Made by a program: the position numbers and the translations under genes. Shown here piece by piece: positions 10,651 through 57,086 of a stretch of 64,000 nt of DNA. The notes beneath the pieces are model-generated. The model saw nothing but the letters and a program-made list of their open reading frames with translations. It ran no database searches and was not told where the DNA came from. Position 1 is the first letter of the stretch. The number at the start of each line of letters is the position of its first letter. Origin of the DNA: an uncultured Candidatus Binatia bacterium (GTDB lineage: Bacteria; Desulfobacterota; Binatia; UBA9968; JAJDTQ01). The stretch spans positions 107,449-171,448 of the forward strand of contig CBDBFB010000004.1 of assembly GCA_965204505.1 (NCBI GenBank), written 5' to 3'.

Positions 10651-12155
10651 TGGATTGACCCTGTCAAGTTGCTACAGGGTAGTTGAGATCCTCCCCCCTG
10701 GAAGTGTCGGGGTTGGGGCGCGGCCGACGTTCGCGACGGTGGATCACTCTGATATCCGTGGGTTGGTTACCACCTGACTTCACTTCGTCGCGGAGCTGCC
10801 TCACTCTGAAAACGTGGGTTCACCAGTCCTTTTGGGACCGGCCCCTCACAGAACGGCCGAGGGTTCTCCTCACCGGCCGACCACGCCCCGATCCCGACAC
10901 TCCTCTTGCTTCATGTACTCACCGGACCGATACGCGAGCTCAAGCCGCGGCGCGGGACGCGTGCGGCAGGCCGTTGACCTCGCGTGCGATGGCCCAGATG
11001 AATCCGACCAACTCGCGCGCCACCGCCGTGGTGACGTAGCACTTGTTCTTGCCGACCTGATACAGATGCAGGTAGCGACCGCACAGCCGCTTTTGCGCTG
11101 CCCAGGCCAGCGCCTGCACCGCCTCCGGCGCCACGGACGCCTTCTGCCTCATGTACTTGGTCTTGCGTGCCGGGAAGCGATAGCCCCAGGCCGACTCCAC
11201 CAGCAGCCGGCGTACATGGCCGTTGCCGGCCTTGGTGATCGCACCCGGGCGCCGCCGGTCTCCCGAAGAGCGTTCGCTCGGCACTAGGCCGAGGAAACTC
11301 ATCAACTGCCGCGGCGAGTCGAAGCGGGTGAGATCGCCCAGTTCGGCCAGCACCGTGATCGCCGTGATCCGGTTCACGCCCCGCAGACTGATCAACGCCT
11401 CGACCGTCGGACGTAGCGACCACGAAGCCGCCGCCTCAAGCATCTGCTGCTCCACACCATCCAGGCGAGCCTGCGCCTGCTGCACCGTGTCGACGTATTC
11501 CTGGAACACCACCTGCTGAACCGGTTGCTCAAACGCCTGCTGCTCCAACCAGCCAAAATACGGCTTCGTCCAACGGCAACGCCCCGGGAACACCCGCTCG
11601 TGGCGCAACAAGAAAGCGCTCAGCCGCTGCCGGGCCTTCTGCTGTATCGCCAGCATGTCCTCGCGTGCGCGCGTCAGATCCCGCATCGCCTCCTGATCCT
11701 CGTCCGGCACCCACACTGGCGTCAGATCGCCCGAACGGTGCAGGCGCGCCAACGCCACGGCGTCGCGGCGATCCGTCTTCACCCGATCGCCCGGCTTGCG
11801 CGGAATCAGGCTCGGCGCCACCACCGCGCAGGCGTGACCGCTTTCCACGATCTCCCGGTACACCCCGTATCCGCATGGCCCGGCCTCGTAACAGAAGCTC
11901 AGCAGCTTCCCATCCGGGCTCAGCCGGCCGATCAAACGCCGGAGCGACCCGCGTTGATTGCGAATCTCGCCCCGGTACACCGGATCCTGGCGGCCCGGTT
12001 CCGCGATCGCAACCGCAATGGAGTCCTTGTGAACGTCCAGTCCTACGTACGCGCTATACTCCGTCATGGCCTGCCCTCCTCAATAGTGGCTCTTTCTCAC
12101 GGTTCCAGCGTCGAGCATAAACCACCTCGCCCGAGTCGAGGACCAGGTCAATCCA
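10651..12155 (-). mobile_element. IS110-family insertion sequence (~1.5 kb) with short terminal inverted repeats
   Basis: tggattgaccctg at 10651-10663 is the near-perfect reverse complement of caggtcaatcca at 12144-12155. The pair flanks the transposase ORF. The element sits between the ssb stop and a terminator hairpin. Confidence 0.55.
10940..12067 (-). CDS. IS110-family (DEDD) transposase
   Basis: N-terminus MTEYSAYVGLDVHKDSIAVAI is the IS110 RuvC-like DEDD_Tnp signature. 375 aa. Confidence 0.9.
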   Translation of the reverse strand: MTEYSAYVGLDVHKDSIAVAIAEPGRQDPVYRGEIRNQRGSLRRLIGRLSPDGKLLSFCYEAGPCGYGVYREIVESGHACAVVAPSLIPRKPGDRVKTDRRDAVALARLHRSGDLTPVWVPDEDQEAMRDLTRAREDMLAIQQKARQRLSAFLLRHERVFPGRCRWTKPYFGWLEQQAFEQPVQQVVFQEYVDTVQQAQARLDGVEQQMLEAAASWSLRPTVEALISLRGVNRITAITVLAELGDLTRFDSPRQLMSFLGLVPSERSSGDRRRPGAITKAGNGHVRRLLVESAWGYRFPARKTKYMRQKASVAPEAVQALAWAAQKRLCGRYLHLYQVGKNKCYVTTAVARELVGFIWAIAREVNGLPHASRAAA

Positions 12156-13308: not shown

Positions 13309-16300
13309 CTAAGGCATCCGGCTCCTCCCTTGGGTACCGCCCCGCATGGCGCTGACGGCAAATCGTTTGTCCGGCCACGGGTGTCGGATTTCCAGCCTGG
13401 GCCAGTGAGCCACCACATGGCGTGCGATGTCGGCCCAGTTCGAGCGGTCCTTCTGCGACCGTCGGCGTAGCGTTCGCAGCCACAGCCGCTTCAGGCGGGT
13501 GGCAAAACGGTAGAGGTATCGGTAGCTGGTCGGGACCGCATAGTAGTTGAGCCATCCGTCGAGCACCTTCCCCAGCCATCTCGCCATTGCTTTGGGTTTG
13601 CAATGCATCCGTCTGCGTAACCCCTCCTTGATCCGCTTCAGTGTCCGGCTCATCCGTTTCGCAACCGGCTTGCGCCCCACCTGAAAGCGCCCCAGTCTGT
13701 TCTCCGTGCAGTAGTGCGTGAAGCCCAGGAAGTCCAAGGTCTCCGGTCTGCCCTGCCCTCGTTGCCGATGGCTTTTGACGGCAAACCGCCCGAACTCAAT
13801 GAGTCGGGTCTTGTCGGGGTGCATTGCCAGTTCAAAACTCTCGAACCGCTCCTTTACGGCACTCAGGAAGCGCTCCGCGTCCCGCTTGTGCTGAAAACCC
13901 ACCACGAGTCGAGTAGCCGAGGGGAATTTCACCCCTCGGCCCTCCCAGAACCGGACGTGAGACTCTCGCCTCATCCGGCTCCTACCCTCCAGCCTCAGAC
14001 ACCGGCTCCTCCCATCTCTGGTTGGCCTCCATCCTTGGCCAGAGGGTCGGGTCCCTTCGCTCCGCCCGCATTGCCGGGCTTCATCGCTAATACGGACCCG
14101 TCCGTCCCTGTGCTCCGCTTCGGTACTCGGCTCCTTGCGGTTCTTCCGCTTGGAGGTCTCCCTTGGCATCGGAGCTCCAGGTTCCCACGTTCCGCACAAG
14201 AGCCTCTCGCTGGTCTCACGCCGCCTTCATGCCGGTCGCCGCTCGGCCAGTCAGCAGGCACCCTCCGAGCTCCATCCCAGACCAACGACTGGAGCCTGGT
14301 TTCGGCGACATCTTTACGCTTTCGACACGTCATCAACGGTTCACTTTCGTTCGTCTTACCAGCGCACACCTGACGGGTGATTCCCGCCTTTTCCGCAACG
14401 CTCACCACCCCGGTCGTTGAACCGGAGCAGCTTGCGGTGGTTTGGACCCTGGTCCTGCAACCCGAGTCCGAGGGGCCTTCCCTCATCTCCTGTGCAGCAA
14501 GGCGCTTCAACTCGGCTCTGCTACGTCATCAGAACCTCCTCTCGTCGCCGTCGTGGCGCACCGTCATCGGCGTACCGCACGATGACGGTGTCGCCTCTGA
14601 CCTCGCGGCTGCGCCATTTCTTCTGGAACCACAGGTCGAGGACGTAGTGCAGGTAGACGTTCGCCAATACCGGCGAAACCACCGAGCCTTGAGGCGTTCC
14701 CCGCAGATCGTCCCGCCACTCTCCAGCTTCGTCGGGTAGGACGCTGGCGCGCGCATCCTTAGGTGGAGGCTTGTCCGCTCCCGCTCTTTCGATCGCGGGT
14801 GGGTGCGCAGTTCCACCATAGACCACGTTTCCAGCATCCCCCCTGAAATTCCGTACGTCCGGTTTTCCCGGGTACGGCTTCAAGCACCAGGCACCCCTTC
14901 AGGAGTTCGGTACGGCGTCTTCCGCGATACCCGCCACGGTTAAGGCTGACCCGGCCATGCCCGTGCAGACACCCGCGTTTACGCCGTCCTTCGACCGTGC
15001 CGCATATCGCCGTGGAGGCCGGTTTCTGTGCACCGGCAGACCAGCCATACGCCACACGGTCACCTAGGCCCAGAGGTCCTCGCTCAGGGCCGGTTATGTT
15101 GTCCAGCCCGTCAACGCTTAATCGACCTCATCCGCCAGTCAGGAGGACTCCGCGTCCTTTCCCGTTATCCGGTTATGGACGCGGTCCTTGACATTCAAGG
15201 GTCACAACATCCTGTCTGTCCTCCTCACCTTCCGGACTTTCACCGCTGAACTTTCCCGGATTGCCGCCGTCTGTACGCCGGGGGACCCGATGCGTGCATT
15301 CCTCAGTTCCTTCCGCATCGGTTCTAGCCATCGGGACGTCATGAATCCCTTGGCATCCACCAATTACCCCCACAAGTCAGCTTCGATGCGGGGAACGCCG
15401 TTTTCGACGCTTCGGACGACTGTTCGCTTTCGCTACGGCCCTCCGGTTTGCTCGCCCTCCAACTGACCTGGACCAGAAGTGAACAATCTCTCACCCGGCC
15501 CACAAGGGCTTTTACTTCCCTGCTTTACAGGCAGCAGGTCGCCCTGTTGCCTGCGGGATATGACTACGACGCCAAACTGAGAATTGCGCCGGCGGGACTT
15601 TCGCCCGCGAGTTCAGCAGCTAGTCTCGCTGCACCATGACGCCGGCGCTCAACCACTTGATGATGAGCCTGATGACCCGCTTGTCCCCGATGCGGTGCTC
15701 CAGGAACCGGATCAGCCAGTCCCTTGACACGTTGTCGAAGAATGCGCGGATGTCACAATCCACCACCCAGTTGATCTTGCGCCGTTTTAACCCGACCGTG
15801 AGCGCATCGAGCGCATTGTGCGGTCCACGCCCTGGCCGGAACCCGTAGCTGAACCCCAGGAACTCCGCCTCATAGATCGGCGTCAGGATTATCTCCGTCA
15901 CCGCCTTCTGGACTATCTTGTCCTCGATGGCCGCGACGCCGAGCGGTCGTGTGCCGCCATCAGGCTTCGGTATGTTCACCCGCCTTGATGGCGTCGCCCG
16001 GTACGCTCCCGAGTGCACGCGGTCGTGAAGGTCGGCCAATCGGCCTTCCAGCCCTTCCTCGTACTCCCGCCACGTCACGCCGTCCGCGCCTGCCGCAGCG
16101 TCTTTCTTCAGTTCGAAGAATGCCCAGCGCAGCGCATCAACCGTGACATGGTGAAGAAGCGCCGTCAGACGCTCCCGTGGTTCCCGTTGAACGAATTGCC
16201 GTATCCGGTCAGCCGCCTGTGTCACGCTTTCCCGGTCCTGCGCCCGGCGCGTGCTTTGGCTTCCCGGATTCCCCTTGGGCTCGGTCCTTCGCTCCATCGA

Positions 16301-16381
16301 CTCCGCCGGGACCACGGCCCCTTTGTTCGCCGACTTCTCAGCTAATATGACCGAGTCTGACTTCTCCATGCCGTGCATCAT
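13309..16381 (-). CDS. group II intron-encoded reverse transcriptase/maturase (RT0-7 plus X, no En domain), in three segments split by nested introns
   Basis: Segments: 16381..15635 (RT0-3, ending ...IKWLSAGVM), 14730..14562 (EAGEWRDDLRGTPQGSVVSPVLANVYLH...RYADD), 13907..13309 (VVVGFQHKRDAERF...ETLDFLGFTHY...LNYYAVP...RHPW). The joins are in frame once introns C and B are removed. Confidence 0.8.
13908..14561 (-). mobile_element. nested ORF-less group II intron B (~654 nt) between RT-motif YADD and VVGF of the intron A RT gene
   Basis: 5' GUGCGCCACGACGG follows ...UACGCCGAUGACG. A canonical 34-nt domain V, GAGCCGGAUGAGGCGAGAGUCUCACGUCCGGUUC, with AGC triad, GAGA tetraloop and AC bulge, is at complement 13948-13981. 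Domain VI GGGCCGAGGGGUGAAAUUCCCCUCGGCUACUCGAC ends at 13908. Confidence 0.7.
14731..15634 (-). mobile_element. nested ORF-less group II intron C (~904 nt) inside the intron A RT gene
   Basis: Starts GUGCAGCGAGACUAGCUG right after ...GGCGUCAUG. It ends ...CGUCCUACCCGAC. The exon join gives AGVM|EAGEW. A domain V-like hairpin CCGUAC-CCGG-GAAAA-CCGG-AC-GUACGG is at complement ~14847-14882. Confidence 0.6.
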
Positions 16382-16735
16382 CGGTTACGGATTCCTCCTT
16401 TCTTCAGCGACCCCGCCACGACAGCGGGATGGCATGGAGACCTCCCAGGTCCCGGTGCTGTGCGTACGTACGTGCCTGGGTTCTTAGACACCGCGGGATT
16501 CCAGCCCCCCTCGCCATATCGGTGAGCTGGATGCTGCCTTCGGCCCATTGAAAAGCCTCGGCATCCCGGACACGTCTCTTTCGGTGCTCAATAGCCCCGC
16601 CCGCACGCGCCCCTGTCAACGCTTAACCCCCATCCTCACGGATGACGGCCCATGACTCGGGGTGGAAGTGGTGGCTTGCCTTTCTTTCCCGCCGGACTTT
16701 CACCGGCTGCACTGGCACCAGTTTGCCTGGCGCAC

Positions 16736-19339: not shown

Positions 19340-20580
19340 TCTCAGCGTCCTCCTTGAACTGAAACGTCCTGCCGCACACACGGCTCGCCGCCTTCGGCGA
19401 CATCGCCGCACTCGCGCCGCCCGCCTCGCTCCGCTCGTCGTCGGCGCGCCCCTCCGCATCCGCGTCGCCGGTGCGGGCTTCGCCCCACACCGGCTCCCGC
19501 ACCACCGCTGACGCCGCTGCCTGCGTTTCCGGCAACGTGCTCCGCACGTCTGCCGTCACCGCCAGGCACAACCTTCGCGCCGCCGCTCGCTGACGCTCCC
19601 GGCGCGCTTCGCACGTCTCAACCCCGCATCGTACACTTGCCGCGCTTCAATGTCGTTCACCTCATTGCGCTCGCCATCGGCACAGACCCCCCTCCACGGC
19701 CCATGTCGCCGAGGACCCGCTTCGCGCCTCCCCTACGCCACTCGGCGACGCGGGCCTTCCCCCCTCCGTCGGACCGGTCCGTCCTTCCTGCGGCGCGCCG
19801 CCGGTGCACGCTTCCCCCGTCACCAGCTTCCACTCCCCGCCGTCCTCGGTGTCTGCACCACTGCGGACGCCCCGGCCGGTGCTTCCGGCAACGTGCTTCG
19901 CACGTGTGCCATCAGCGCCGTCCGCAGTGACCACTACTCAATCGCCATTGCCCGTTGACGGATTCTGTCGAGCCCGCTGCGCGGTCTCGCCTCTCCCGCC
20001 CGGCATCCCTCGCGCCGCCGCTCGCTGACGCTCCCGGCGCGCTTCCCACGCATCAACCCCGCATCGTACACTTGCCGCGCTTCAATGCCGTTCACCTCAT
20101 TGCACTCGCCATCGGCACGGACCCCCCGCCGCGGCCCATGTCGCCGAGGACCCGCTTCGCGCCTCCCCTGCGCCACTCGGCGACATGGGCCTTCCCCCCT
20201 CCGTCGGTCCGGTCCGCTCTTCCTGCTTCGCGCCGCCAGCACGGGCACCGCCGTCACCAGCTTCCGCATCATGTCCTGCTCCGGTGTCCGCGCCTCCGTC
20301 ACCGTGCTCCGCACGCATCCCGTCAGTTCCTTCAGCGCAGCTCGCCGCACTCGCGCCTTCCGCCTCGCTACGCTCGTCGGCACCCGCTTCCGCACCACGT
20401 CCTGCACTCGTGTCCGCACTACTGCGGACGCCTCTGCCGTCGCCTCCCGCAGCGTGCTTCGCACGACTGCCCTCAGCTCCTCCGCACGGACCCCCACTCA
20501 GTCGCCGTGGCGGCTCCCCTCCGCCGGGTCCGCCGGCGCCCATCCCCCCGTCGCTTGAACCCCTGGTTTCTTCGTTCCTG
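19340..20580. repeat. about 2.5 copies of a ~433-bp degenerate tandem direct repeat, non-coding
   Basis: The unit boundary core cgccgccgctcgctgacgctcccggcgcgcttc(g/c)cacg...ccccgcatcgtacacttgccgcgcttcaatg(t/c)cgttcacctcattgc recurs at 19578 and 20011. A partial copy spans 19340-19577. The 433-bp period is not a multiple of 3. Confidence 0.8.
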
Positions 20581-21074: not shown

Positions 21075-21464
21075 ATGGCGCAAAACGATCGCGGAAATCC
21101 GGGAACGGGGAGCAATCCGGCCGGAAAACGGAGCGATGCGCGGCAGCCCCGCTCGATCCGCTTCTCCGATTCCGAGTGGCGGCTGATCGAGAAGGTCGCC
21201 ACTCGGCACGGCGTTCCGGTTGGAGAGCTGGTCCGCGCCGGGGCGCTCGCCATCGCCGAGGACCGGCTCGGCGAGGATACTCCGGCCACGTTGACGCCCG
21301 GACACCTGGCGCTCATCGAGGCCACCTACCGCTCGGTCTACATGATGGCCACGCTCAAGCGAGACGAATTGCTCGACGCCGAACGGCATGAGGAACTCCA
21401 TCGCTTGGTCGCAGCGGCCCGCAAAACGATGGCGGAGACCATGGACGAAGGGCCCGGAAGTTAG
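21075..21464 (+). CDS. MobC-like ribbon-helix-helix relaxosome accessory protein
   Basis: AGAGGA RBS. ...RSIRFSDSEWRLIEKVATRHGVPVGELVRAGAL... is the MobC/RHH pattern (R..vRlt..E...l...A...G.s.s.l.R). Confidence 0.65.
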   Translation: MAQNDRGNPGTGSNPAGKRSDARQPRSIRFSDSEWRLIEKVATRHGVPVGELVRAGALAIAEDRLGEDTPATLTPGHLALIEATYRSVYMMATLKRDELLDAERHEELHRLVAAARKTMAETMDEGPGS

Positions 21465-21593
21465 TTTGCGTAGATTCGACGATCCGTCCCTGGGTACGGC
21501 AAGCGGACTGACCGCTTTGCACTAATTCACCACGATGTTACCTTAAACGCTGTTCTGCTGCAGGCTAGCGCAATCCGGCGAAAGGGGGTTCCG

Positions 21594-22595
21594 GTGGACC
21601 GCGTCGACTATCAGCCTTTACTGATTCAGGATTTGGTAACTTGGAACAGAAACGGGGAACTTGATCTCGCCCCGTGGTACCAACGCCGCGCCGTCTGGAC
21701 CACCGCACAAAAGGCTTACCTCGTAAACACTTTGTTCGAGCGAAAGCCCGTGCCAACCCTGTATTTCCGTCACGCTATAGATCTCGACGCCGACAAGACT
21801 GTCCGCGAGGTGGTCGACGGCCAACAACGGATCCGCGCTGTACTCGAGTATCTCGCCAATGAGTACGCGGCACGCCACCCTCAACATCCCCGTCGACTGG
21901 TTTATTCGAAACTTACCCGCCCACAACAGGAAGCTTTCCGCGAGACTGCTCTCTCCGGCGGTTGGTTACTTGGCGCTACAGACCAGGACGTAATTGAAGT
22001 CTTCGGCCGCCTGAACTCCGTATCCAAGACCCTAAACGCATCTGAGAGTCGCAACGCGAAGTATGGCGGCGAGTTCAAACAATTCTGCTTGCGGCACGCC
22101 GCCAATCGCGTCGCCATGTGGCGTGACCTCAACATTTTCACCGCGAATGACATCGCCCGAATGTTGGAGGTCCAATTCCTCGCTGACTTGTGCCTCAATC
22201 TCATGCATGGCCTAAGCGACTACAGCGCCGCCAGACTCAACAACCTCTATAAAGATAACGATGACGAATTCGAAGAAGCGGACTACATTGAGCGCCGTTT
22301 AGAGCGTTGCTTCGCACGCGTGGCCGAACTCCCCAAGGACGCCATTTTTGACACGATATTCCGCCGGCAACCAGTTTTCTTCTCACTAATTGTCGTTCTC
22401 GACAGCCGTAAGAGCCTTCCCGCCAGCAACCGACTTGCCACCGTCCTTCGTGAGGTCGACGCCCGATACAACTCTGACGTCCCGCTGCCTGATCGGCCAC
22501 CTAGCGACGCAGCGTTCTACGAAGCCTGCCGAGCTAGCACACAACGCTTGAAAAACCGCCGTACGCGTCACGACTATATCGCGTCTTTTCTGTAG
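21594..22595 (+). CDS. DUF262 (ParB/Srx-fold, GmrSD N-terminal-like) domain protein
   Basis: DGQQR motif (VVDGQQRIRAV). About 333 aa. The local GC is markedly lower than in the surroundings. Confidence 0.8.
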   Translation: MDRVDYQPLLIQDLVTWNRNGELDLAPWYQRRAVWTTAQKAYLVNTLFERKPVPTLYFRHAIDLDADKTVREVVDGQQRIRAVLEYLANEYAARHPQHPRRLVYSKLTRPQQEAFRETALSGGWLLGATDQDVIEVFGRLNSVSKTLNASESRNAKYGGEFKQFCLRHAANRVAMWRDLNIFTANDIARMLEVQFLADLCLNLMHGLSDYSAARLNNLYKDNDDEFEEADYIERRLERCFARVAELPKDAIFDTIFRRQPVFFSLIVVLDSRKSLPASNRLATVLREVDARYNSDVPLPDRPPSDAAFYEACRASTQRLKNRRTRHDYIASFL

Positions 22596-22603
22596 GTCCC
22601 GGC

Positions 22604-23218
22604 ATGTCACCTAGCCTGCGCCCACAGCTTCGGCGCACTCTCACCGCCACGACCGCGGCTCTGGAACTGACAGACCAATTGGACCAGCCTGTCAATTTTC
22701 CCAAGCACTACATTGCCGAACTAATTCTCCTCCGGATTTTTGCATTTTTCGAATCGGTCGTGGAGGAAATAGCCTGCCGACTTGTCTGCGGTGCCTCATA
22801 CTGCGACGGAAGCAAACCTACTTTGTTGCGAAATCGGCCAACGCGGAGCAACGAGAAGGCGCTTCAGGCGATGCAGAGTTACAACAGGTCGGAGCCACGG
22901 TACCGATTGCGATGGAACCAAGCCAAGGAAATTGCGGACAACCTAGAAACCCTGTTTCCAGAAAACGAACATTTCGTAGCGACGATCCGCAACCACGGGC
23001 AATTGATATCGGACCTGCGAAAGGTCCGAAATCACATCGCACACCGGAACCAGGGCACTTATAAGAAGTTCCAGGAAGTTGTCCTTCGGAGGTATGGAGC
23101 AAGGATTCCAAGTATGACGCCAGGGCGCATGTTGGTTTCGCATCGCTTTTCCCCCAACTTGGTGGAAGAATGGAGTAGAGCTGTTCAGATACTGACTAAG
23201 GCCGCTATTCGAGGTTGA
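22604..23218 (+). CDS. HEPN-like protein (Rx4H motif RNHIAH), partner of DUF262
   Basis: Begins 9 nt after the DUF262 stop. ...LRKVRNHIAHRNQG... fits the HEPN Rx4-6H motif. Low GC. Confidence 0.45.
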   Translation: MSPSLRPQLRRTLTATTAALELTDQLDQPVNFPKHYIAELILLRIFAFFESVVEEIACRLVCGASYCDGSKPTLLRNRPTRSNEKALQAMQSYNRSEPRYRLRWNQAKEIADNLETLFPENEHFVATIRNHGQLISDLRKVRNHIAHRNQGTYKKFQEVVLRRYGARIPSMTPGRMLVSHRFSPNLVEEWSRAVQILTKAAIRG

Positions 23219-23710
23219 CACACCCGGTCGCCGTAGAAGGAATGGTGTCCGAGAGGATGGTTGTAAGGCTTCAGACGGCGACGGAATGCCCTTGGTCACT
23301 GCTCGGTTTGGCACACCACGCCCACTTCCGTTCTATACGAGCTACACCGGCGTCAAGAAGAAAGCTGTCGTGAAGCGGCGGCTCTCACGGCGGCGGCGGG
23401 CTGTTCTTCCCGCATCCGGTCAGTTCGACCCGACTCTGTCCGATCCGCTCCCCTTCCCGTCCTCCACCCGGACAGAGCCGTCCAGGCAGATTCGGGAAGA
23501 GCGGGAGATCGCCCAAAACGGAACAAGACGGTGCCTTCGTGGACGAATGGAAACTCGAGACGGTTTGCCGTAGCTCTCTTTGCAGAAACGACAAACCTCC
23601 TCAACAATTCGAAAGGGGTCGCACCGCAGCTAGCCTGAGAACTCGCAAGCCCTCATCTGGAAGCGCATAGCGCCCGGAAATGGAGGAATGGAGACGGCGA
23701 CAGGCCTCGC

Positions 23711-26656
23711 TTAGAGTTCGAGGTCCATCTCGATGCGCTTGCCGCGGGCGGGCGGCTCGGGTTCCGACGCCCTGTCCCGGGACGTTGCCGGCTCGGTTTC
23801 CCTCTCCAGGGAAGGCGGCGCGGATTCCTCCGGGCTCTGCCATTCCCTTTCGGGCAACGCTTTGTCGTCCTTTTCGCGCTCGCGTTGGATCGCCTCGCGG
23901 ATGCCTTCGAGCGCGGAGATGCGTTCGCCGGTGACCGATTCGAGACGTTCCCTGAGCGCCTGCGCATCGTCGGTGACGAGTTCCGCGCGGTCGCGCGCCC
24001 GCGAGACCTCCACGTAGAACGACTTGGCTGTGGTCAAGCGGGGGTGTTTGGCCTCCATGGCGGCGATCACGTTGTCCACCGTGCGCCCCTGGAAAGCGTG
24101 CACGGTCGAGGCCCAGGCGTGATCGAGATGGCGCAGTTCCGGATCGCCCGGGGTGAGGGTGAGCTTGCGGCCCTCCTCCAGCATGAACGTCACCCGCCCG
24201 TTCCCAACGCCCAGAACGTCGGCCGTGCCGCTGTTGACCAGTCCGAGTCCCTTGTCGTTGCGGGTCCAGCGGATGCGGTCGCCGGCGCGAAGCTCGATGG
24301 TCTCCGCTGTATAGACTTCGGCGCCGCCCCGCCGCCCGCCGATCTCCGATGGCTTCCAGGCAACGGTCGAGCCGTTGGGACCCTCGAGATGTACGATTCT
24401 TTTCTCGTGATCGACGCTTTGGACGCGCCGCTCGTCGCCCTTCTCAACGCCGAGACGCTTGTACGGGCGGTGGAAGGCGACCACGTCGCCGGGCGTGTAG
24501 TTGGAACTGAGCGCCTTCTCCGCGTTGGTGTAGCCTTTCGAAACCAGCCGCTGGGTCTGCAGGGCCGGCCCGGCGATGCGTCCCTCGCGGGCTAGGCGCT
24601 CGCGGATATGGGCGTTGATTCCCTCGCGCAGCTCGTGGCTCGGGGCCATCACCCCGGTGCGCTCGCGCATCTCCGGCGAGAGCCTGAGCCAGCGCGCCGC
24701 CACCGCGCCCGCGATGTTGTCCGGGTTCACTTCCGCTACATTGCCGCCCAGCTTGTCGAAAGCCTTGCCGATCTCGCCCGCAAGGCTCGCCTCGACGGCG
24801 GCCCTGAGATCGGGGTCGCGCTGGCGCAGGATCTCGTCCATGACCGCGGTCTTCATGCCCGCCTGCTGCAACTGCGCGAAGGGTTTGCCCGCGTCGACCG
24901 CGTCCAGTTGCTTCGCGTCGCCCACCAGCACGAGCTTCGGCACGCGCAGTTCGCTCGCGATCCGGAGCAGGTCGCGGGCCTGGACCGTGGACGCAAGCGA
25001 CCCCTCGTCCACCACTAGCACGGTCTTCGCGAAGGCGGCGCGCATATCCTTCGCGCCCTTCTTCGTGAGTCTGCCTTCGGCCACGCCCGCGTTCCTTGCA
25101 AGGAACCGTTGCAGGGTCTCGCTCTCGATCCCCGACTCCGCCGCCAGCGTCCGCACCGCCGACGCCGATGGCGCAAGCCCGACCATGCGCCAACCCTTCT
25201 TCTCCGCCAGCGCCCGTGCGCGGTCGAGCATCCGTGTCTTCCCGGTTCCGGCATACCCCTGAACGCCCACCGTGCGGTCCTCCCCCGAGAGGATCAGCTT
25301 CACGGCTTGCTTCTGTCCGGCCGTGAGCGGTCCCTTGCGGAGGTGCCGGTCCACCGTCCAGCCGCGCATGGGCGCCTTGCCCCGGCGCTCGCCGCTTCGC
25401 ATCAGCGCGATCGCCTCCCGTTCCCGGGCCACCGCCTTGTCCGTGGTGAGACCGCCGCCCCGCCCGAGGGCCGGCGCATCGTGCAGGCGGCCCTCGCGTC
25501 CGAGTGCGTCCACCGCCTGCTCGATGGCCTCGATCGACGCCGCGCCCGGACTGTACGCGAGCGCGGCCGAGAGCAGATCGTTCTTCGTGAACACCGCGCT
25601 GCGCTCGGAGAGATGGGCAAGAGCCCAGTCCACGGCCTCGCGCGCGGGGCCGGACCTCGCGGTGAACTCGAAAAGGTCCGCTTGGGGCGCCGCCCCGGAA
25701 GGGCCGTCCCTGCCGCCCGGGTCGAGCCCCTGTTCCATGGCCGCATCGACCAGCGCCTTGGCGTCGAAGCCCAAGTGAGTTGCCTGTCCGGCCCAAGTCT
25801 CGCGCAAAGCACCCCGATCCACATCGCGCTTGCCCGCACGGGTCATCAGCGCCGCGCGCCTGGCAAGGTGCTGGTTCTCCGCCGTCCTGCCAAGGCCCCG
25901 CTCCTCCATCGCCGCCTCGATCTCGGCACGGCGTGTCGAAAATGCCTCCACGGTCTCGCGCGAGACCCCTGCGATCTCGAATCGGCCGTCCGAATGGGTT
26001 CTCTCGATCCCGTATCCGAGCTTCGTGAGTTCGCCCGCGAGCTCGCTCCGGTAGAGCGCCCCCAGAAGCATCTTCGAGGCGTACAGGCTCTCGTTCGCCA
26101 TGGTGTGCCATTTGTCGTCCCGACCGAGCACCATGTTGGCGATCACCGAGTGTGTATGCAGAGCGGGATCGAGGTTCCGTGAGGTCTCGTGCCTGAAGGT
26201 GGCGACTACAGTCTTCTGATCGCGTACGCGGACCATGCGGCCGCTCCCTGTGTCCTGCAACCTGGTCTCGGCCGCGTTCCTCTCGAACCAGTCGAGCGCG
26301 CGCCCAACCGCACGGCCGTGGGCCTCCACGATGCGCTCGTCGCCGCCGATGAGCGCGGCCAGGGAGACGGACTTGGGCGCGGAGAACGTCAGGTCACGGC
26401 CGGGACGGTGGTGGATCGCGCCGTCCCCCATCCTGCGGCCGAGCCGTTGCCCGGAGCCGTCCGGCACCTCGCCCTCCAGCACCGCCTTGAACGTGTCGGG
26501 ATCGACCGGCCCTTCGAGGCCCAACTCGGCCGCTCCCCGGCCCGCCCAGGCGCTCGCCGCCCGGTGCTCGGGAGAGTCCTTCGCGTAGTATCCGTCCCTC
26601 TCGTAGTAGCCGGCGCCCTGGGACGGGCTCGCCACCGCTCCGATCGACGCGACCAT
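23711..26656 (-). CDS. traI: MobF/TrwC-type conjugative relaxase with C-terminal TraA-like helicase
   Basis: N-terminal relaxase domain (...YYAKDSPE...HHRPGRDLTFSAPKSVS...HTHSVIANM...). Helicase Walker A GYAGTGKT. 981 aa. Confidence 0.9.
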   Translation of the reverse strand: MVASIGAVASPSQGAGYYERDGYYAKDSPEHRAASAWAGRGAAELGLEGPVDPDTFKAVLEGEVPDGSGQRLGRRMGDGAIHHRPGRDLTFSAPKSVSLAALIGGDERIVEAHGRAVGRALDWFERNAAETRLQDTGSGRMVRVRDQKTVVATFRHETSRNLDPALHTHSVIANMVLGRDDKWHTMANESLYASKMLLGALYRSELAGELTKLGYGIERTHSDGRFEIAGVSRETVEAFSTRRAEIEAAMEERGLGRTAENQHLARRAALMTRAGKRDVDRGALRETWAGQATHLGFDAKALVDAAMEQGLDPGGRDGPSGAAPQADLFEFTARSGPAREAVDWALAHLSERSAVFTKNDLLSAALAYSPGAASIEAIEQAVDALGREGRLHDAPALGRGGGLTTDKAVAREREAIALMRSGERRGKAPMRGWTVDRHLRKGPLTAGQKQAVKLILSGEDRTVGVQGYAGTGKTRMLDRARALAEKKGWRMVGLAPSASAVRTLAAESGIESETLQRFLARNAGVAEGRLTKKGAKDMRAAFAKTVLVVDEGSLASTVQARDLLRIASELRVPKLVLVGDAKQLDAVDAGKPFAQLQQAGMKTAVMDEILRQRDPDLRAAVEASLAGEIGKAFDKLGGNVAEVNPDNIAGAVAARWLRLSPEMRERTGVMAPSHELREGINAHIRERLAREGRIAGPALQTQRLVSKGYTNAEKALSSNYTPGDVVAFHRPYKRLGVEKGDERRVQSVDHEKRIVHLEGPNGSTVAWKPSEIGGRRGGAEVYTAETIELRAGDRIRWTRNDKGLGLVNSGTADVLGVGNGRVTFMLEEGRKLTLTPGDPELRHLDHAWASTVHAFQGRTVDNVIAAMEAKHPRLTTAKSFYVEVSRARDRAELVTDDAQALRERLESVTGERISALEGIREAIQREREKDDKALPEREWQSPEESAPPSLERETEPATSRDRASEPEPPARGKRIEMDLEL

Positions 26657-27676: not shown

Positions 27677-28297
27677 TCAGTTCGGAGGGGTGTCCGCCGT
27701 CACATGGTCGATAAGTCCCGTGAAGGCCGAGATGTCGTCGAGATAGTAACGCCACTTTTTCTTCTCAACATCTTCCCACGCATAACGTTTCTCCCATAAA
27801 CGGGCCTTGTCGTCGAAGTCCCGGAAGAAGTTCATCAGACTTGAACTGTCTGTACGTTTCGGACGTTGCTTCAGGGACGTAAACGGATCATTCGGTCTGG
27901 GCGCAGTTTTTTCCTGGGTGATGACGGCCACCCAACTCATGGGTTTCGTTTTGAAGATTTCATCGAATGTAGAATCGAGCTTCTTCCGCTCCTTTCCAGG
28001 CAGCTCATCATGTAATGCGGCAAGGTGGTGAACTTTCTTGTGGGTGAGCTTTTCGCGCAAAAGAACCATCTTGAGCATCAATTCAAGGGCCGTCCCAAGA
28101 TTGAAGTGCGAGACCTCCTTCATCGACGCCCACATGTCGCGATTCATGCGCCATTCCATCCCAGGGACAGGGGCTTTGCTGTCTCTGCATAGACCATAGC
28201 TCCTGATTTCCGATTCGACATGCACAGCGGCGGTCTTGAAATCGTGGATCATGTTGTGGAGATGGCGAAGTTCGGCGGTCTTCATGTTCGTTGGCAT
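27677..28297 (-). CDS. hypothetical protein in a low-GC pocket
   Basis: AAAGGAGG RBS precedes MPTNMKTAELRHL. 206 aa with Lys-rich AT-biased codons, unlike the flanking genes. Confidence 0.45.
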   Translation of the reverse strand: MPTNMKTAELRHLHNMIHDFKTAAVHVESEIRSYGLCRDSKAPVPGMEWRMNRDMWASMKEVSHFNLGTALELMLKMVLLREKLTHKKVHHLAALHDELPGKERKKLDSTFDEIFKTKPMSWVAVITQEKTAPRPNDPFTSLKQRPKRTDSSSLMNFFRDFDDKARLWEKRYAWEDVEKKKWRYYLDDISAFTGLIDHVTADTPPN

Positions 28298-28751
28298 TGC
28301 TTGCCTCCTTTCTGTCATCGTCAGTTTGGGATTGAGAAGGGGATAGTGCTAATCTCAGAGCAAATCCTCTTTGTTTCAACTTGCCGCCGGAACCAACTGG
28401 ACCTGCAGAGGCAGCCGCCCTGCGGGCATGGCACACAATTTCTCACTCGCGAACTTGGATTGTGCCATATCCGCAGTCTGGAGGCCGACACCTTAGTCAT
28501 TACCTGCCGGTGATTCGCCCGACAATACCGGCACGACTTCGGAGATATTCCGGCTGATTCCCTCGGTTTCGAGAGATAGCGCCGTAGATCCCCGAGCTAC
28601 CAGATTGGCAGGACTTTCTCCGGGGGAGTTGACCCGTTTAGGTGTCCACTAAACGGATCAACTCCAGTTTGGAGGATTTGCTCCTCTACGCCGGATGGTG
28701 CCACACTGTTCAAGTCGTGCAGTCCCCAGGCAGGTGGAACGGGAGTGACCT

Positions 28752-31700
28752 GTGCCGCGGTTCGCGGCAACGGAGATGATGGATCACGTGGCGGGAACGA
28801 ACAAGAAGCTGACAGCCGCAATCGAGGCGTATCTCACCGACCTCGGACGGGTACGCGCATCGGGCGGCGCGACCGGGGAGCGATCAATCTATGGGCCGCT
28901 TGCCAATCTCCTTAACGCTGTCGGAGGCGCGCTCAAGCCGTCGGTGTTCTGTGTGGGCGAGTTGGCCGATCAGGGCGCAGGGCATCCCGACTTCGGCCTT
29001 TACGCGGTGAGCCAGGTGCAGAAGGGTCGACCAAAGGGCGGCCAGGTTCCAGAGCGTGGCGTAGTCGAGGTGAAGGCCCCCGATGACGACGCTTGGCTCA
29101 CGGCGGCGGGCGATCAAGTCAGCCGGTACTGGAAGCGCTACCGTTCGGTGCTGGTGACGAATACGCGGGACTTCGTGTTGGTGGGCGAAGACGGGGCAGG
29201 CCGTCTCGAGAAGCTGGAAACGTTCCGGCTGGCGGATAGCTTGGAGGACTTCTACCGCCAGTTGGAGAAGCCGCGTATCTTCGCTCGTAATGTTGGCCTG
29301 GGCCTCGGCGAATATCTTTGCCGCGCACTCTCATATCAAGCCGCTCTTTCGGAGCCCAAGGACTTGGCTTGGCTGCTCGCTTCCTATGCGCGCGACGGGC
29401 TGGGGCGCGTCGAGGCGACGGGTGATTCGCCATCGCTCAGGGTGGTGCGCTCGGCCCTGGAGGAAGCCTTAGGCGTTCACTTCGAGGGCGAGAAGGGCAA
29501 GCGCTTCTTCCATTCAACGCTGGTGCAGACACTTTTCTATGGCGTCTTTTCTGCCTGGGTCCTGTGGTCGCGCAGTTTCAAGTCCGACAGCGGGGCGCAT
29601 TTCGAGGGCGGCTACCGCCCCAAGCAGTTCAGTTGGCGCGAGGCGGGCTGGCATCTTCGAGCGCCGGTTCTGCGGGTGCTGTTCCAGCAGATATCCGATC
29701 CGGTGCAACTGCAATCCCTCGGTCTCGTCGAGGTATTGGACTGGACCGCCGGAGCGCTTGACCGTGTGGATCGAACGGCCTTCTTCTCCCGATTCAACGA
29801 AGGCGAGGCGGTGCCGTACTTCTATGAACCGTTTCTCGAAGCCTTCGACCCCGATCTCAGGAAACAATTGGGTGTCTGGTATACCCCGACGGATGTGGTG
29901 CGTTACATGGTCACCCGCGTAGACAGGGCGCTTAAGGACGACCTCGGTATCGCAGGGGGATTGGCCGCGGAGAACGTCTACGTCCTCGATCCTTGCTGCG
30001 GTACCGGCGCCTATCTGGCCGAAGTACTGCGACGCATCGCGGCTAATCTTGACGGACAGGGATTTGGGGCCCTGGCGGGTGCTCGGCTGAAGCAGGCGGC
30101 ATTGGGCCGTGTGTTCGGCTTCGAGATCATGCCGGCTCCGTTCGTCGTTGCCCATTTGCAGGTCGGGCTGACCATGCAAGACCTTGACGCGCCGATGGCG
30201 GACGATGGGACCGAACGGGCAGGGGTGTTCCTCACAAATGCGCTGACGGGGTGGGAGCCGAGGACGACCAAGCCCTTGCCATTCCCGGAACTCGAAGAAG
30301 AACGCGACCGGGCGGACCGCGTGAAGCGGGAGACGCCGATCCTCGTGATCCTCGGCAATCCGCCCTACAATGGCTTCGCAGGCATGGCGGTAGACGAAGA
30401 AAGGGAATTGTCGGAGTCGTACCGGTCGACAAACCAGGTCAGAAAACCAGAGGGGCAAGGGCTGAATGATCCCTATGTCCGCTTCTTCCGCATGGCGGAA
30501 CGGCGTATCACGGAAAAGACCGGTCGGGGCGTGCTCTGCTTCATTTCCAACTACTCATGGCTCGACGGCCTGTCCTTCACGGGGATGCGAGAGCGCTATC
30601 TGGAGGCGTTTGACTCGATCCGCATCGACTGCCTGAACGGTGACAAGTACAAAACCGGCAAGGTCGCACCGGACGGCTCACCCGACCCAAGCATCTTCTC
30701 GACGGAGGGCGATCCGGTCGGCATCCAGGTCGGAACCGCCATCACGACTCTGGTGCGCAAAGCGGACCACAAACCCGCCGATACGGTGGGCCTCCGGAAC
30801 CTCTGGGGCCAGGCGAAACCGGCGGAGCTGAACGAGACAGCCGAAGCGGAAGCGGATAGCCTGTACGAGCAGATCGAGCCTGTCCTGCCGCTTGGTCTTC
30901 CCTTCGTGCCAACCACGGTGAGCGGCGACTGGTTCGACTGGCCCACGTTGCCGGATCTGTTCTTGAAGTCGTTTCCTGGCGTCAAGACTAGTCGTGACGG
31001 GTTCCTCGTAGATGTGGACCTCGACCGACTGCGGGCACGCGTCGCCGATTATTTCGACGCGGCGTTGAGCCATGAGGAGATTGCGTCACGCTATCCGACA
31101 GTGATGAAGACTTCGGCGCGATTCGACGCCCGCTCTGTGCGTGACGCGTTGTTGAAACGTGGCGGGCCGGACGAAGGCGGGTTCATCCGCTTCACGTATC
31201 GGCCGTTCGACAACCGCTGGCTCTATTGGGAGGAAGATAGTCGACTACTTGACCGGCCACGACCCGACTACAGGCCGCATGTCTTCGAGGAGAATTTGTG
31301 GCTGTCAGCCGCGCAGCATCTCCGGAAGGGGGAAGAGGACCCGCAAGCGTGTTCTACGACGCACATGAGTTGTCTGCATCTGATCGAGCGTACTGCATTG
31401 ATGTTCCCGGCATGGCTCTGCGCCGACGCTCTGGATACGACGGGGGTCAAGGGCCGCCCAAATCTGTCTGATCCGGCTCAGTTCTACCTGCAGCGTATCG
31501 GCGCGAGCGTCGAGGATTTGTTCCATCATGTTCTTGCCACGTTGCACGACCCGGTCTACCGAGCGACTAACGCAGGCGCCTTGAGGATGGAATGGCCCCG
31601 GATACCCCTTCCGGGCTGGCGCAATGGCGGCACCGTGAAAGGGGCGGCAAATATGCTCGCAGAAACCGCGACACGGGGTCGCGACTTGGCACAGATGCTG

Positions 31701-32171
31701 GACCCGATGCGCCCCGTTCCGGGCGTCACAGAGGCTCCGCTACGGCCGGAGATCGCCTCCCTTGCAGTTCCCGCCACGATCAACGGGCAAAACATGAAGC
31801 CAGTTGACTTCTCAGTGACGGCTGGCTGGGGACATTTCGGAACGGGCCAAGCCATCATGCCCGGCCAGGGCCAAGCTGTTGAGCGTGCCTTGGCGCCCGA
31901 GGAACGCGCGGCAATGTCAGACAGCTTGTCCGTTCTGGGCAATACGACCTTCGACGTGTACCTGAACGGCAACGCCTTCTGGCGCAATGTTCCCGCCGCC
32001 GTCTGGAACTACAAGCTCGGTGGCTACCAAGTGCTTAAGAAATGGCTCTCCTACCGCGAGCACCCCATCCTCGACCGGCCGCTCGACCATGAAGAAGTTC
32101 GCCACTTCACGGATACCGCCCGACGTATCGGGGCGATCATATTGGAGACCGCGCCGAAGAAGCGGCCTTAA
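28752..32171 (+). CDS. single-chain Type IIL/IIG (MmeI-like) restriction-modification enzyme: PD-ExK nuclease plus gamma-class N6-adenine MTase plus TRD
   Basis: N-terminal PD...EVK (HPDFGLY...VVEVKAPDD). MTase motifs VWYTPTDVVRYMV, LDPCCGTGAYL and GNPPYNGF. C-terminal WNYKLGGYQVLKKWLSYRE signature. Confidence 0.85.
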   Translation: MPRFAATEMMDHVAGTNKKLTAAIEAYLTDLGRVRASGGATGERSIYGPLANLLNAVGGALKPSVFCVGELADQGAGHPDFGLYAVSQVQKGRPKGGQVPERGVVEVKAPDDDAWLTAAGDQVSRYWKRYRSVLVTNTRDFVLVGEDGAGRLEKLETFRLADSLEDFYRQLEKPRIFARNVGLGLGEYLCRALSYQAALSEPKDLAWLLASYARDGLGRVEATGDSPSLRVVRSALEEALGVHFEGEKGKRFFHSTLVQTLFYGVFSAWVLWSRSFKSDSGAHFEGGYRPKQFSWREAGWHLRAPVLRVLFQQISDPVQLQSLGLVEVLDWTAGALDRVDRTAFFSRFNEGEAVPYFYEPFLEAFDPDLRKQLGVWYTPTDVVRYMVTRVDRALKDDLGIAGGLAAENVYVLDPCCGTGAYLAEVLRRIAANLDGQGFGALAGARLKQAALGRVFGFEIMPAPFVVAHLQVGLTMQDLDAPMADDGTERAGVFLTNALTGWEPRTTKPLPFPELEEERDRADRVKRETPILVILGNPPYNGFAGMAVDEERELSESYRSTNQVRKPEGQGLNDPYVRFFRMAERRITEKTGRGVLCFISNYSWLDGLSFTGMRERYLEAFDSIRIDCLNGDKYKTGKVAPDGSPDPSIFSTEGDPVGIQVGTAITTLVRKADHKPADTVGLRNLWGQAKPAELNETAEAEADSLYEQIEPVLPLGLPFVPTTVSGDWFDWPTLPDLFLKSFPGVKTSRDGFLVDVDLDRLRARVADYFDAALSHEEIASRYPTVMKTSARFDARSVRDALLKRGGPDEGGFIRFTYRPFDNRWLYWEEDSRLLDRPRPDYRPHVFEENLWLSAAQHLRKGEEDPQACSTTHMSCLHLIERTALMFPAWLCADALDTTGVKGRPNLSDPAQFYLQRIGASVEDLFHHVLATLHDPVYRATNAGALRMEWPRIPLPGWRNGGTVKGAANMLAETATRGRDLAQMLDPMRPVPGVTEAPLRPEIASLAVPATINGQNMKPVDFSVTAGWGHFGTGQAIMPGQGQAVERALAPEERAAMSDSLSVLGNTTFDVYLNGNAFWRNVPAAVWNYKLGGYQVLKKWLSYREHPILDRPLDHEEVRHFTDTARRIGAIILETAPKKRP

Positions 32172-32174
32172 CGC

Positions 32175-32999
32175 TTGCCAGCGGAAGCGCTCGACTGGCT
32201 TGTACCGTCCATGCTTGCTCAAGAATCGTACGCAACCAGTAGGCTCGATCGGCTGTTCATCGCCGAACTGCGGGCGTTTCACTCCAACTTCGACGTGGCC
32301 CCAGTGCCTGTCGAGCAGGAATTGAGGGCTGGAGCGATTGGCTGGATCGCGACCTTCGCACCGAAGGCGATCAGCCTCCGCGGGAAGGAAGAGCTTCGGA
32401 AAGTTTCAACCGCGGCCCGAGACCGAGCCGACTTCAGGCATTTCGGCTGGTACCGAGTTCCCTATCTGGATGTGGCCCAGTATTCTTTGGACGGTGACAA
32501 CTCGAACTTGTCGACCGTGATCGACAATATAGATCACCACAACAGTTCCTTGCGCTCCTCCCTACATGGACCATTGGCATTGATTGCCCCGAGGCTCAGC
32601 CTTGACGACAATAACCTTTCCGGCCGGATGGAAAGCTGCTTCAAATCCAGTTCCATGTATAACGATAGCCTAATGTGCATATTTGTGGCCCTCAACGATA
32701 ACCAAGAACGAAAGCTGGCCTTGATTAGGAAATGGCGGACGATGAACAGCCTCAGCCCACAAGACATCAAGCTTCTGGATCTCATCCTTACCGGCGGACT
32801 CATATCGAACGCGTTGATTGCGGACGGGTTTTCTGCGGTTCTTCGATACATTTTTTGCCGTTTTCTGGATCCCGAAGTATCCAAAGCCCTGCCCGGACAG
32901 CAACTCGATTTACTCCCCGACAGCGAGGAGTGCCCAGTTTGGCAAGAAATGGCAGCTCACCCCTTGGTAGGCTCGTTGGTTTCGGCGAAAAGGACGTGA
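32175..32999 (+). CDS. hypothetical protein immediately downstream of the RM enzyme (candidate accessory or partner)
   Basis: Starts 4 nt after the RM stop. 274 aa at ~50% GC. It ends within a 21-bp tandem duplication tttcggcgaaaaggacgtgac x2 at 32980-33021. Confidence 0.5.
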   Translation: MPAEALDWLVPSMLAQESYATSRLDRLFIAELRAFHSNFDVAPVPVEQELRAGAIGWIATFAPKAISLRGKEELRKVSTAARDRADFRHFGWYRVPYLDVAQYSLDGDNSNLSTVIDNIDHHNSSLRSSLHGPLALIAPRLSLDDNNLSGRMESCFKSSSMYNDSLMCIFVALNDNQERKLALIRKWRTMNSLSPQDIKLLDLILTGGLISNALIADGFSAVLRYIFCRFLDPEVSKALPGQQLDLLPDSEECPVWQEMAAHPLVGSLVSAKRT

Positions 33000-33281
33000 C
33001 TTTCGGCGAAAAGGACGTGACAAGGGCAGGTTTTACAGTACATACCGATCCCTTTGGAGTCACGGAGACGCTGTCCGCCTCAAGCCTTGCGGCAATGTCA
33101 GGAAGGGGCGAGTGTCAAAGTGTTGACCTTTGCGTTGGTTGCTGAAGTCGGCGACCAGCATTAACGTTCGCCCACGCGATTGGACCGTTGGGCAGTCTGA
33201 AGGAATTGGCCTGAACCCTCCGACCAAAGGTTTCTGCGGCTGACTGGCCACCGCCGACCCTCCGGCATGCCGTTGATTCAA

Positions 33282-37820: not shown

Positions 37821-37904
37821 TGGCGTACGTCGGGCTGATCCCCACTTGACGGGCGGCGGCAGTCTTCAAGAAAGGTACGCCGGCTCTTGGGCGTATCGGC
37901 TCGG

Positions 37905-38718: not shown

Positions 38719-38948
38719 ATGACGAATCCTCCTTCCCAAGAGGGACGCGACACCAGACCATGCTTGACCTCGCACATTCAGCATACTGCTGGGACGGCGA
38801 ATGGGCAATGAAGAGAGTTTCCAATGAGACATGAGGCTGACGGAGGAGGCGGAATCCAACGAGAGAATGAGCCCGAAGTCTGTGGGTGGGGGAGAACGGG
38901 AGGATGATCGTGGCAATGAGTCTTGAGAGGGTTACGCACGGTCCGGCG

Positions 38949-43046: not shown

Positions 43047-43053
43047 GGTCGAC

Positions 43054-57083: not shown

Positions 57084-57086
57084 TGA

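Follow-up and report, generated by a model that had tools for sequence, protein, structure and literature searches.

Operons that join a ParB-fold protein to a HEPN protein have been on record since Anantharaman et al. (2013; PMC3710099) listed the RiboL-PSP HEPN family as 'operon with ParB', and the combination was validated in 2022 as PD-T4-2, a system from Escherichia coli ECOR65 annotated 'DUF262, HEPN' (Vassallo et al., 2022; PMC9519451). HHpred assigned the A protein of PD-T4-2 to DUF262 (99.7%) and the B protein to HEPN_RiboL-PSP (97.8%), and the system guards E. coli against phage T4 both natively and when cloned, with deletion from the native host restoring T4 plaquing (PMC9519451). 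DUF262 serves as the nucleoside triphosphatase (NTPase) sensor in GmrSD and SspE (PMC12065111, PMC10952713) and is defined by the motifs QRxxxW, DGxQR and FxxxN (PMC12065111); later reviews group PD-T4-2 with Menshen and Dazbog as uncharacterised DUF262 systems without DUF1524. Here we describe a two-gene cassette, a DUF262 gene followed by a gene for a HEPN-like protein, in a stretch of 64,000 nucleotides (the window) from contig CBDBFB010000004.1 of an uncultured Candidatus Binatia bacterium. The cassette is read, with a probability of about 0.68, as a two-gene module of DUF262 plus HEPN architecture directed against phages or mobile elements, acquired by horizontal transfer and lodged in a hotspot for variable cargo within an integrative and conjugative element (ICE). 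The architecture, which the first-pass annotation of the window had regarded as unverified, is thus one that had already been noted and tested.

The features of the cassette, in window positions, are the following.

21458–23659, no strand: inserted cargo segment of ~2.2 kb, made up of the two genes, 136 nt of unique sequence upstream and ~440 nt of unique sequence downstream
21583–21588, plus strand: Shine-Dalgarno-like AGGGGG, 5 nt before the GTG of the DUF262 gene (read from the sequence)
21594–22595, plus strand: DUF262/ParB-like NTPase gene, GTG start, 333 aa
21681–21698, plus strand: DUF262 motif I, QRxxxW (Q30 R31 R A V W35); Q30, R31 and W35 invariant in 23 homologues
21816–21830, plus strand: DUF262 motif II, DGQQR (aa 75–79); all five residues invariant in 23 homologues
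22002–22016, plus strand: DUF262 motif III, FxxxN (F137 G R L N141); F137 and N141 invariant in 23 homologues
22596–22603, plus strand: spacer of 8 nt between the two genes, GTCCCGGC (read from the sequence)
22604–23218, plus strand: HEPN-like gene (the partner), predicted RNase effector, ATG start, 204 aa
23027–23044, plus strand: Rx4H motif RNHIAH (R142–H147), predicted HEPN catalytic residues, with conservation assessed in 57 representatives

Comparison with described systems

PD-T4-2 (accessions RCO39066.1 for PD-T4-2A and QOYX01000002, 338334–339873, for PD-T4-2B) was compared through PADLOC models and the published tables (PMC9519451 Tables S1–S3). Like the window pair (1625 bp), PD-T4-2 (1540 bp) consists of two co-directional genes, encoding a DUF262/DndB-like ParB-fold protein without DUF1524 and then a small RiboL-PSP-like HEPN protein. 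The window pair differed in matching the PADLOC A model only partially and the B model not at all, and in the position of the Rx4H region, which is placed near aa 110–130 in PD-T4-2B by the HHpred coordinates of Table S3 compared with aa 142–147 here; the same coordinates suggest that PD-T4-2B is the shorter HEPN protein. As judged from these sequence comparisons, the window pair is probably a divergent DUF262–HEPN (PD-T4-2-like) member and not PD-T4-2 proper. The best Pfam relative of the partner is RiboL-PSP-HEPN (PF18735), aligned over most of the model, although the window protein falls below the curated cut-off of that family and lacks the L-PSP fusion.

Other systems share one half of the architecture. 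In GmrSD, BrxU and SspE, too, an N-terminal ParB-DUF262 NTPase with the three motifs found here precedes a helical middle domain, whereas the window pair has no DUF1524/HNH DNase and its effector is a separate protein and a predicted RNase. Menshen NsnA has the same ParB-DUF262 plus ParBDB organization (PMC12065111; Millman, 2022; Li et al., 2025) and gives a full-length hidden Markov model (HMM) match, but Menshen comprises three genes, while the window pair comprises two and has HEPN in the effector position without an ATPase transducer. Models of Dazbog DzbA/DzbB were absent from the PADLOC matches at E ≤ 1. In PD-lambda-5 and MAE_28990-type systems, a ParB fold and HEPN likewise occur together in defence (PMC9519451 Table S1; PMC3710099); these are ParB-HEPN fusions or operons with a DNA methyltransferase, whereas no methyltransferase accompanies the window pair. 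No minimal nucleotidyltransferase (MNT), the antitoxin of HEPN-MNT modules, adjoined the pair in the window or in related loci.

Gene organization and base composition of the cassette

Both open reading frames (ORFs) were found where the first-pass annotation had placed them, as were DGQQR at aa 75–79 of the first protein and RNHIAH at aa 142–147 of the second; the spacer, given there as 9 nt, measured 8 nt. Such a short spacer indicates a single operon and probably translational coupling of the DUF262 and HEPN genes. The G+C content of the pair was 54.8%, compared with 67.3 and 68.7% in the 4-kb flanks, so that the dip itself was real but its size had been overstated (~50% in a 70% context).

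The DUF262 protein had 992 database relatives (E ≤ 1e-3), of which more than 100 shared 53–85% identity with it end to end. The HEPN-like protein had 48 close relatives, and an exhaustive profile search recovered 387 representative clusters at E ≤ 1e-3 and 164 at E ≤ 1e-10. Given these numerous relatives, both ORFs are genuine genes and not chance ORFs. Among PLSDB plasmids there was no match to the region (megablast) or to the HEPN-like protein (tblastn).

The DUF262 protein

The Pfam model GmrSD_N/DUF262 matched the 333-aa protein at 2.7e-17 over aa 12–157 and, with the three motifs invariant, the DUF262 identity proposed at first pass was borne out. The N-terminal ParB-DUF262 domain (~aa 12–157) is followed by a C-terminal helical NsnA-C/ParBDB-like region (~aa 160–333). 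Neither protein of the pair contained DUF1524/HNH (Pfam, and PADLOC for the DUF262 protein), and the DUF262 protein terminates at aa 333, past the helical domain. Its homologues retain the N-terminus MDRVDYQ, with M1, R3 and V4 invariant. DGQQR is the predicted centre of nucleotide binding and hydrolysis; in the GmrSD-like system HEC-06, the substitutions Q79A and R80A in the DGQQR motif abolish defence (bioRxiv 10.1101/2024.01.29.577857).

The best PADLOC model for the protein was Menshen NsnA (8.9e-29, 98.9 bits), which aligned aa 4–331 with 46–377 of its 385 positions. PD-T4-2_A matched at 2.9e-18 (64 bits) in two stretches, the better of which aligned aa 13–90 with 42–115 of 363 positions, and the REase_II model matched weakly (5e-10). 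The AlphaFold2 (AF2) model, with a predicted local distance difference test score (pLDDT) of 89, has an α/β N-terminal domain and a helical C-terminal half. Its top neighbours in Foldseek were BrxU (7p9k, probability 0.99), ParB-CDP (6sdk), Noc, SspE and PadC; probabilities reached 0.99–1.0, with E-values of just 1e-3 to 1e-1. A DUF262 profile found no match among PDB sequences.

The HEPN-like partner

The best Pfam match of the 204-aa protein was HEPN_RiboL-PSP (8.9e-4), which aligned aa 24–159 with 15–171 of 191 profile positions. This family was also matched by 21 of 25 close homologues (best 3.8e-6), and the other families that matched more than two of the 25 were all HEPN families, namely Swt1 (16), ApeA (3) and MAE_28990 (3); a handful of unrelated families each matched one or two homologues with weak E-values. 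Two partner homologues carried a precomputed PF18735 match. When 57 diverse representatives were searched, the recurrent Pfam matches were again HEPN_RiboL-PSP (11) and Swt1 (5), and the PADLOC matches were mostly to CARF-HEPN, Csx1 and Csm6, with scattered single matches to unrelated models; PD-T4-2_B matched one of the 57 (E = 0.035).

Across these 57 representatives (21–49% identity), E39, R142 and H147 were the only invariant columns and N143 was conserved in at least 90%. As a sequence pattern, this is the R-N-x3-H signature of HEPN proteins, and RNxxxH was kept even in the partners of DUF262 proteins just 26–33% identical to that of the window. The AF2 model was all α-helical (pLDDT 94.8); the HEPN motif reported at first pass stands, in a protein that bears Rx4H and is predicted to be helical throughout. 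The HEPN identity of the partner is thus probable on sequence grounds and structurally unconfirmed, and the protein appears to be a distant relative of the RiboL-PSP HEPN family, in a separate clade without a Pfam or PADLOC model.

The strict invariance of R142 and H147 argues that the partner is catalytic, and this bears on an alternative division of labour, in which the pair would attack both DNA and RNA or the DUF262 protein would itself be the effector. The DUF262 protein would then nick or cut foreign DNA as a stand-alone, type IV-like enzyme, and the HEPN protein would either be another nuclease that works independently or lack catalytic activity and provide specificity or regulation. 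ParB-fold domains have been described as endoDNase partners of HEPN proteins in restriction–modification-like contexts (PMC3710099), and both the weak REase_II match and the top structural neighbour, BrxU, which is a type IV restriction enzyme, point in the same direction. GmrSD, BrxU and SspE, however, cut through DUF1524/HNH, which is absent here, and a non-catalytic partner is difficult to reconcile with the invariant R142 and H147; DNA cleavage by the DUF262 protein is accordingly considered unlikely.

Co-occurrence of the two genes in other genomes

A HEPN-like partner was found downstream of the DUF262 gene in all nine independent non-viral loci; of the 15 IMG/VR loci that could be read, 14 had it as well, and the pair was spread over at least six phyla. 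Failure of the pair to recur elsewhere had been named at first pass as a possible refutation of the proposed defence pair, and the reverse was observed. The four GTDB-representative genomes with a relative of the partner (Xanthobacteraceae, Pirellulales, Verrucomicrobiales and an unclassified bacterium; L001–L004) had a full-length DUF262 gene, 60–62% identical, directly upstream. In two metagenomic contigs (L005 and L006), a DUF262 gene likewise immediately preceded the partner. In the opposite direction, DUF262 homologues absent from the HEPN match list were selected from Terriglobia, Bipolaricaulota and Pyrinomonadaceae (L007–L010), and each was followed 5–7 nt downstream by a gene for a protein of 201–202 aa with 33–38% identity to the partner. 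In IMG/VR, full-length DUF262 relatives were 26–53% identical; the downstream partners in the 14 loci were of 202–218 aa, matched the HEPN profile with E-values from 1e-68 to 8e-6, and carried RNxxxH near aa 135–154.

The identities of the two proteins fell together, that of the partner faster (DUF262/partner 85/69, 71/58, ~61/50–59 and ~55/33–38%). The spacer ranged from -26 to +14 nt in the relatives. No third conserved gene was found beside the pair in the loci compared, the sole conserved neighbour of the HEPN gene being the DUF262 gene. The pair had a lower G+C content than its flanks in the window and in each of the nine non-viral loci, and the window and its closest relative (L005) were homologous over the two ORFs only, which indicates that the pair moves as a unit. 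Its settings included transposase- or integrase-rich surroundings (L006 and L010) and, among the viral loci, prophage-type contigs, whereas no mobile-element genes lay near the pair in L007 and L009.

The full-length match to NsnA (8.9e-29), which is the best PADLOC match of the DUF262 protein, would also be expected of a degenerate Menshen system, that is, an NsnA gene after loss of NsnB and NsnC. Neither NsnB (ABC ATPase) nor NsnC (inPIN effector) genes followed the pair in the window or in any related locus, and a conserved ~200-aa HEPN-like gene occupied the downstream position in ~23 loci. A conserved two-gene unit is not a Menshen remnant, and we regard this origin as highly implausible.

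Two further pairs of similar layout were encountered. In Escherichia phage vB_EcoM-689R6 (L011, ON470584.1; positions 2980–4691), an E. coli prophage DUF262 gene (350 aa) lies directly behind the integrase gene and next to icd, with a 216-aa 'hypothetical protein' containing RNACAH encoded 8 nt downstream and giving a weak HEPN-profile match. This pair, the closest found in E. coli and likewise of DUF262–HEPN type, is not PD-T4-2 by PADLOC score, with 49 bits for the A model and no match to the B model. A Rhodococcus opacus plasmid (L012) carries a similar pair, in which the partner is of 264 aa and has RDRIAH.

The integrative element and its cargo hotspot

The window holds an ICE-like backbone with genes for a Strawberry-notch-type helicase, RadC, a DUF7146-Toprim protein, a DUF4326 protein, a YAcAr/SLOG protein, a MobF/TrwC relaxase and an integrase. 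The cassette lies between two backbone genes that form the borders of a variable site.

21075–21464, plus strand: 129-aa backbone gene, left border of the hotspot, 228 homologues
23711–26656, minus strand: MobF/TrwC relaxase-helicase gene, 981 aa (Pfam TrwC 6.9e-84, AAA_30 2.4e-45); its 3' end is the right border of the hotspot

Comparison of the window with five related ICE loci by blastn showed that backbone homology ends at 21451–21457 and restarts at 23660–23721, with flanks that are 81–93% identical to L014 and L015. The same site is empty, at just 69 bp, in L015 and L018. It is filled otherwise in the remaining three: with a gene pair encoding proteins of 295 and 424 aa and having no Pfam family on record in L014 (8378–10536), with a 574-aa protein likewise without a Pfam family on record in L016 (8000–9724), and with a 950-aa UvrD-type helicase with a Top1-like zinc ribbon in L017 (7635–10487). 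Sequence relatives of the L014 pair and of the L016 protein were not found in PDB. The cargo of L014, L016 and L017 may include further defence candidates. Because none of the five related ICEs has the cassette at this site, which is either vacant or otherwise occupied, the cassette is acquired cargo in a recombination-tolerant slot, in agreement with the first-pass annotation. Only short, chance-level direct or inverted repeats flanked the cassette, and none marked an insertion mechanism. The G+C content of the gap between the 129-aa and relaxase genes was 56%, compared with 66–69% in the adjoining genes.

The position of the cassette next to the relaxase gene had been described correctly at first pass, but the label MobC for the left-hand neighbour was not supported, as Pfam MobC (PF05713) did not match the 129-aa protein at E ≤ 1. 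The best matches of this protein were weak ones to ribbon-helix-helix-type Pfam families, below the curated cut-offs (DUF6290 1.3e-4, NikA-like 6e-3), and it is possibly a ribbon-helix-helix DNA-binding protein; tblastn found no relative of it in plasmids. Its gene converges on the relaxase gene in the same backbone in all five related loci, and this constant adjacency leaves room for a transfer-related role. Plasmid relatives of the relaxase, 36–40% identical, are annotated 'MobF family relaxase'. The cassette had also been said to split a mobC-relaxase module. Because the two flanking genes converge and the insert lies between two 3' ends, no operon is interrupted.

A function for the pair within the ICE itself might be suggested by the ParB fold and by the adjoining relaxase gene: the two genes would then belong to the transfer module, as a ParB-type factor in partition or an accessory of the relaxosome, plus a helper. 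The pair is nevertheless absent from all five related backbones examined, differs from the backbone in G+C content, and is found across at least six phyla in unrelated surroundings, both chromosomal and prophage, so that this explanation is close to refuted.

The ~440 nt between the HEPN-like gene and the right-hand end of the insert (23219–23659) are unique and apparently non-coding, with no match in the related loci, no Rfam match and no terminator-like site. They may be a remnant of DNA brought in with the cassette.

Proposed mode of action

The reading of the cassette as an acquired defence module starts from its parts list, its invariant NTPase and Rx4H residues, its operon coupling, the co-inheritance of its two genes and its foreign origin, which are direct observations. 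The defence role put forward at first pass gains its support by analogy with PD-T4-2. As the mechanism of PD-T4-2 is unpublished in the literature searched, the steps proposed here rest on analogy. The 333-aa protein would bind DNA with both its ParB-DUF262 domain and the helical, ParBDB-like domain at its C-terminus, and its intact NTP centre would act as a nucleotide-driven switch responding to foreign, possibly modified, DNA, as in GmrSD, BrxU and SspE. With no DNase fused to it, it would instead govern the 204-aa HEPN protein that is translated alongside it, probably through direct contact between the two. On activation, the HEPN protein, presumably dimeric and with a composite R-N-x3-H site, would cleave phage or host mRNA or tRNA; the phage could then no longer propagate, and the infected cell would most likely pay a price for this. 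For the ICE, the gain would be a host population that outlives phage attack. The neighbourhood in the window is in keeping with defence, containing a Type IIG restriction–modification enzyme (28752–32171, 7e-79) and a PDC-M30A-like gene (33282–34586, 2e-21).

Several results weigh against this reading. The partner remained below every curated HEPN cut-off, HEPN_RiboL-PSP scoring 19.6 bits against a threshold of 28.4; the HMM searches called for at first pass thus secured DUF262 (GmrSD_N 2.7e-17), whereas the HEPN matches recurred but were sub-threshold. Foldseek comparison of the partner model with PDB and BFVD gave nothing significant (best PDB entry 1ylm, E = 2), the sacsin HEPN domain (3o10) ranking 21st, and the HEPN family profile found nothing among PDB sequences, or one spurious spectrin match. 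The PADLOC PD-T4-2_B model matched neither the window partner nor 24 close relatives at E ≤ 1, and for the DUF262 protein NsnA outscored PD-T4-2_A (98.9 against 64 bits). Scans of the cassette for σ70 promoters and intrinsic terminators gave none above shuffled expectation, and no paper on the mechanism of PD-T4-2 was found in the literature library searched.

A different use of the predicted RNase activity would be a toxin–antitoxin-like addiction module that stabilizes the ICE, with a constitutively toxic HEPN RNase restrained by the DUF262 protein and phage defence absent or secondary; a cell that lost the element would be killed or arrested. HEPN RNases are common as toxins of toxin–antitoxin systems (bioRxiv 10.64898/2026.02.22.705581; PMC3710099), and the tight coupling by the 8-nt spacer would suit such a module, as would the mobile carriers, namely the ICE here, the transposase- or integrase-rich loci L006 and L010 and the prophage-type contigs. 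Known HEPN toxins, however, are paired with MNT or small antitoxins and not with a 333-aa NTPase with invariant sensing motifs; the slot is empty in two of the five related ICEs, and L007 and L009 have no mobile-element genes nearby. The sole tested system of DUF262 plus HEPN architecture is moreover a phage-defence system (PMC9519451). Addiction is considered an improbable primary role.

Other features of the window

To the right of the relaxase module lies a low-G+C (54–62%) block of defence type (28752–34586), with the integrase gene beyond it.

28752–32171: Type IIG restriction-methyltransferase gene, 1139 aa (PADLOC REase_MTase_IIG 7e-79; Pfam Type_ISP_C, N6_Mtase)
32175–32999: 274-aa gene without a family, 3 nt downstream of the Type IIG gene
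33282–34586, strand opposite to that of the Type IIG gene: 434-aa gene, candidate defence model PDC-M30A (2e-21)
36182–37084: integrase gene

Just past the relaxase module, a low-G+C ORF (51%; 27677–28318, minus strand) encodes a 213-aa protein with a weak match to HEPN PF05168 (E = 0.023, aa 69–122) and a REKLTH motif at aa 88–93. No MNT-like neighbour, PADLOC or NCBIfam match, or plasmid homologue was found for it.

A segment rich in repeats and with strong strand bias (GC skew about -0.3) separates the YAcAr gene from that of the 129-aa protein (19340–20560). It contains two direct repeats of 234 nt (19569–19802 and 20004–20237; 92% identical) and four copies of a 71-nt unit, and two of the related ICEs, L014 and L015, retain parts of the segment; Tandem Repeats Finder detected no tandem array. 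The segment could serve in regulation, as an origin of transfer (oriT) or as a set of iterons.

Group II intron RNA domains were present at 13908–16700 (minus strand) and 53010–54970 (plus strand). The minus-strand intron gave three different D1–D4 matches and one domain V/VI match, and its reverse transcriptase (RT)/maturase frame is split (13309–14199 and 15620–16381), which suggests that it is nested or disrupted, while the plus-strand intron encodes an intact 458-aa RT-maturase (53442–54818). IS110-family transposase genes lie at 10940–12067 and 51375–52976. An apparent biosynthetic cluster of the type that yields ribosomally synthesized and post-translationally modified peptides occupies 41103–50115 (minus strand), with an MbnB/TglH/ChrH-family enzyme (49228–50115, 3e-71), an ABC transporter, an HlyD-type protein, a TauD dioxygenase, a short-chain dehydrogenase and an S9 peptidase. 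ORFs with GC1 >0.8 in the crude gene call (e.g. 55965–57086 and 37887–38834) had antisense-looking translations and were dropped as artefacts.

Implications

A broader interpretation, which we offer tentatively and hold to be possible but doubtful as a whole, is that the pair represents a large DUF262–HEPN clade (~390 clusters at 50% identity, found in prophages and ICEs and spread over no fewer than six phyla) without a Pfam or PADLOC model. Trigger and target in such a clade could differ from those of PD-T4-2; an NsnA-like ParB-ParBDB sensor might, for example, license an RNase directly and without an ATPase transducer, as a minimal form of the sensor–effector logic of Menshen. Separately, the slot between the 129-aa gene and the 3' end of the relaxase gene might be a hotspot specialized for defence cargo across a widespread ICE family. 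The clade is likely to be overlooked by current defence-finder models, because the B component goes undetected.

The architecture itself is already known. The clade offers a compact (1.6-kb), deeply conserved two-protein system in which to ask how a ParB-type NTPase sensor licenses an RNase, and its invariant or near-invariant residues (D75, G76, Q77, Q78 and R79 in the DUF262 protein; R142, N143, H147 and E39 in the partner) are suited to mutagenesis. Comparison of the ICEs also yields a clean hotspot, seen in empty, differently filled and DUF262–HEPN states, that can be mined for defence candidates in high-G+C bacteria.

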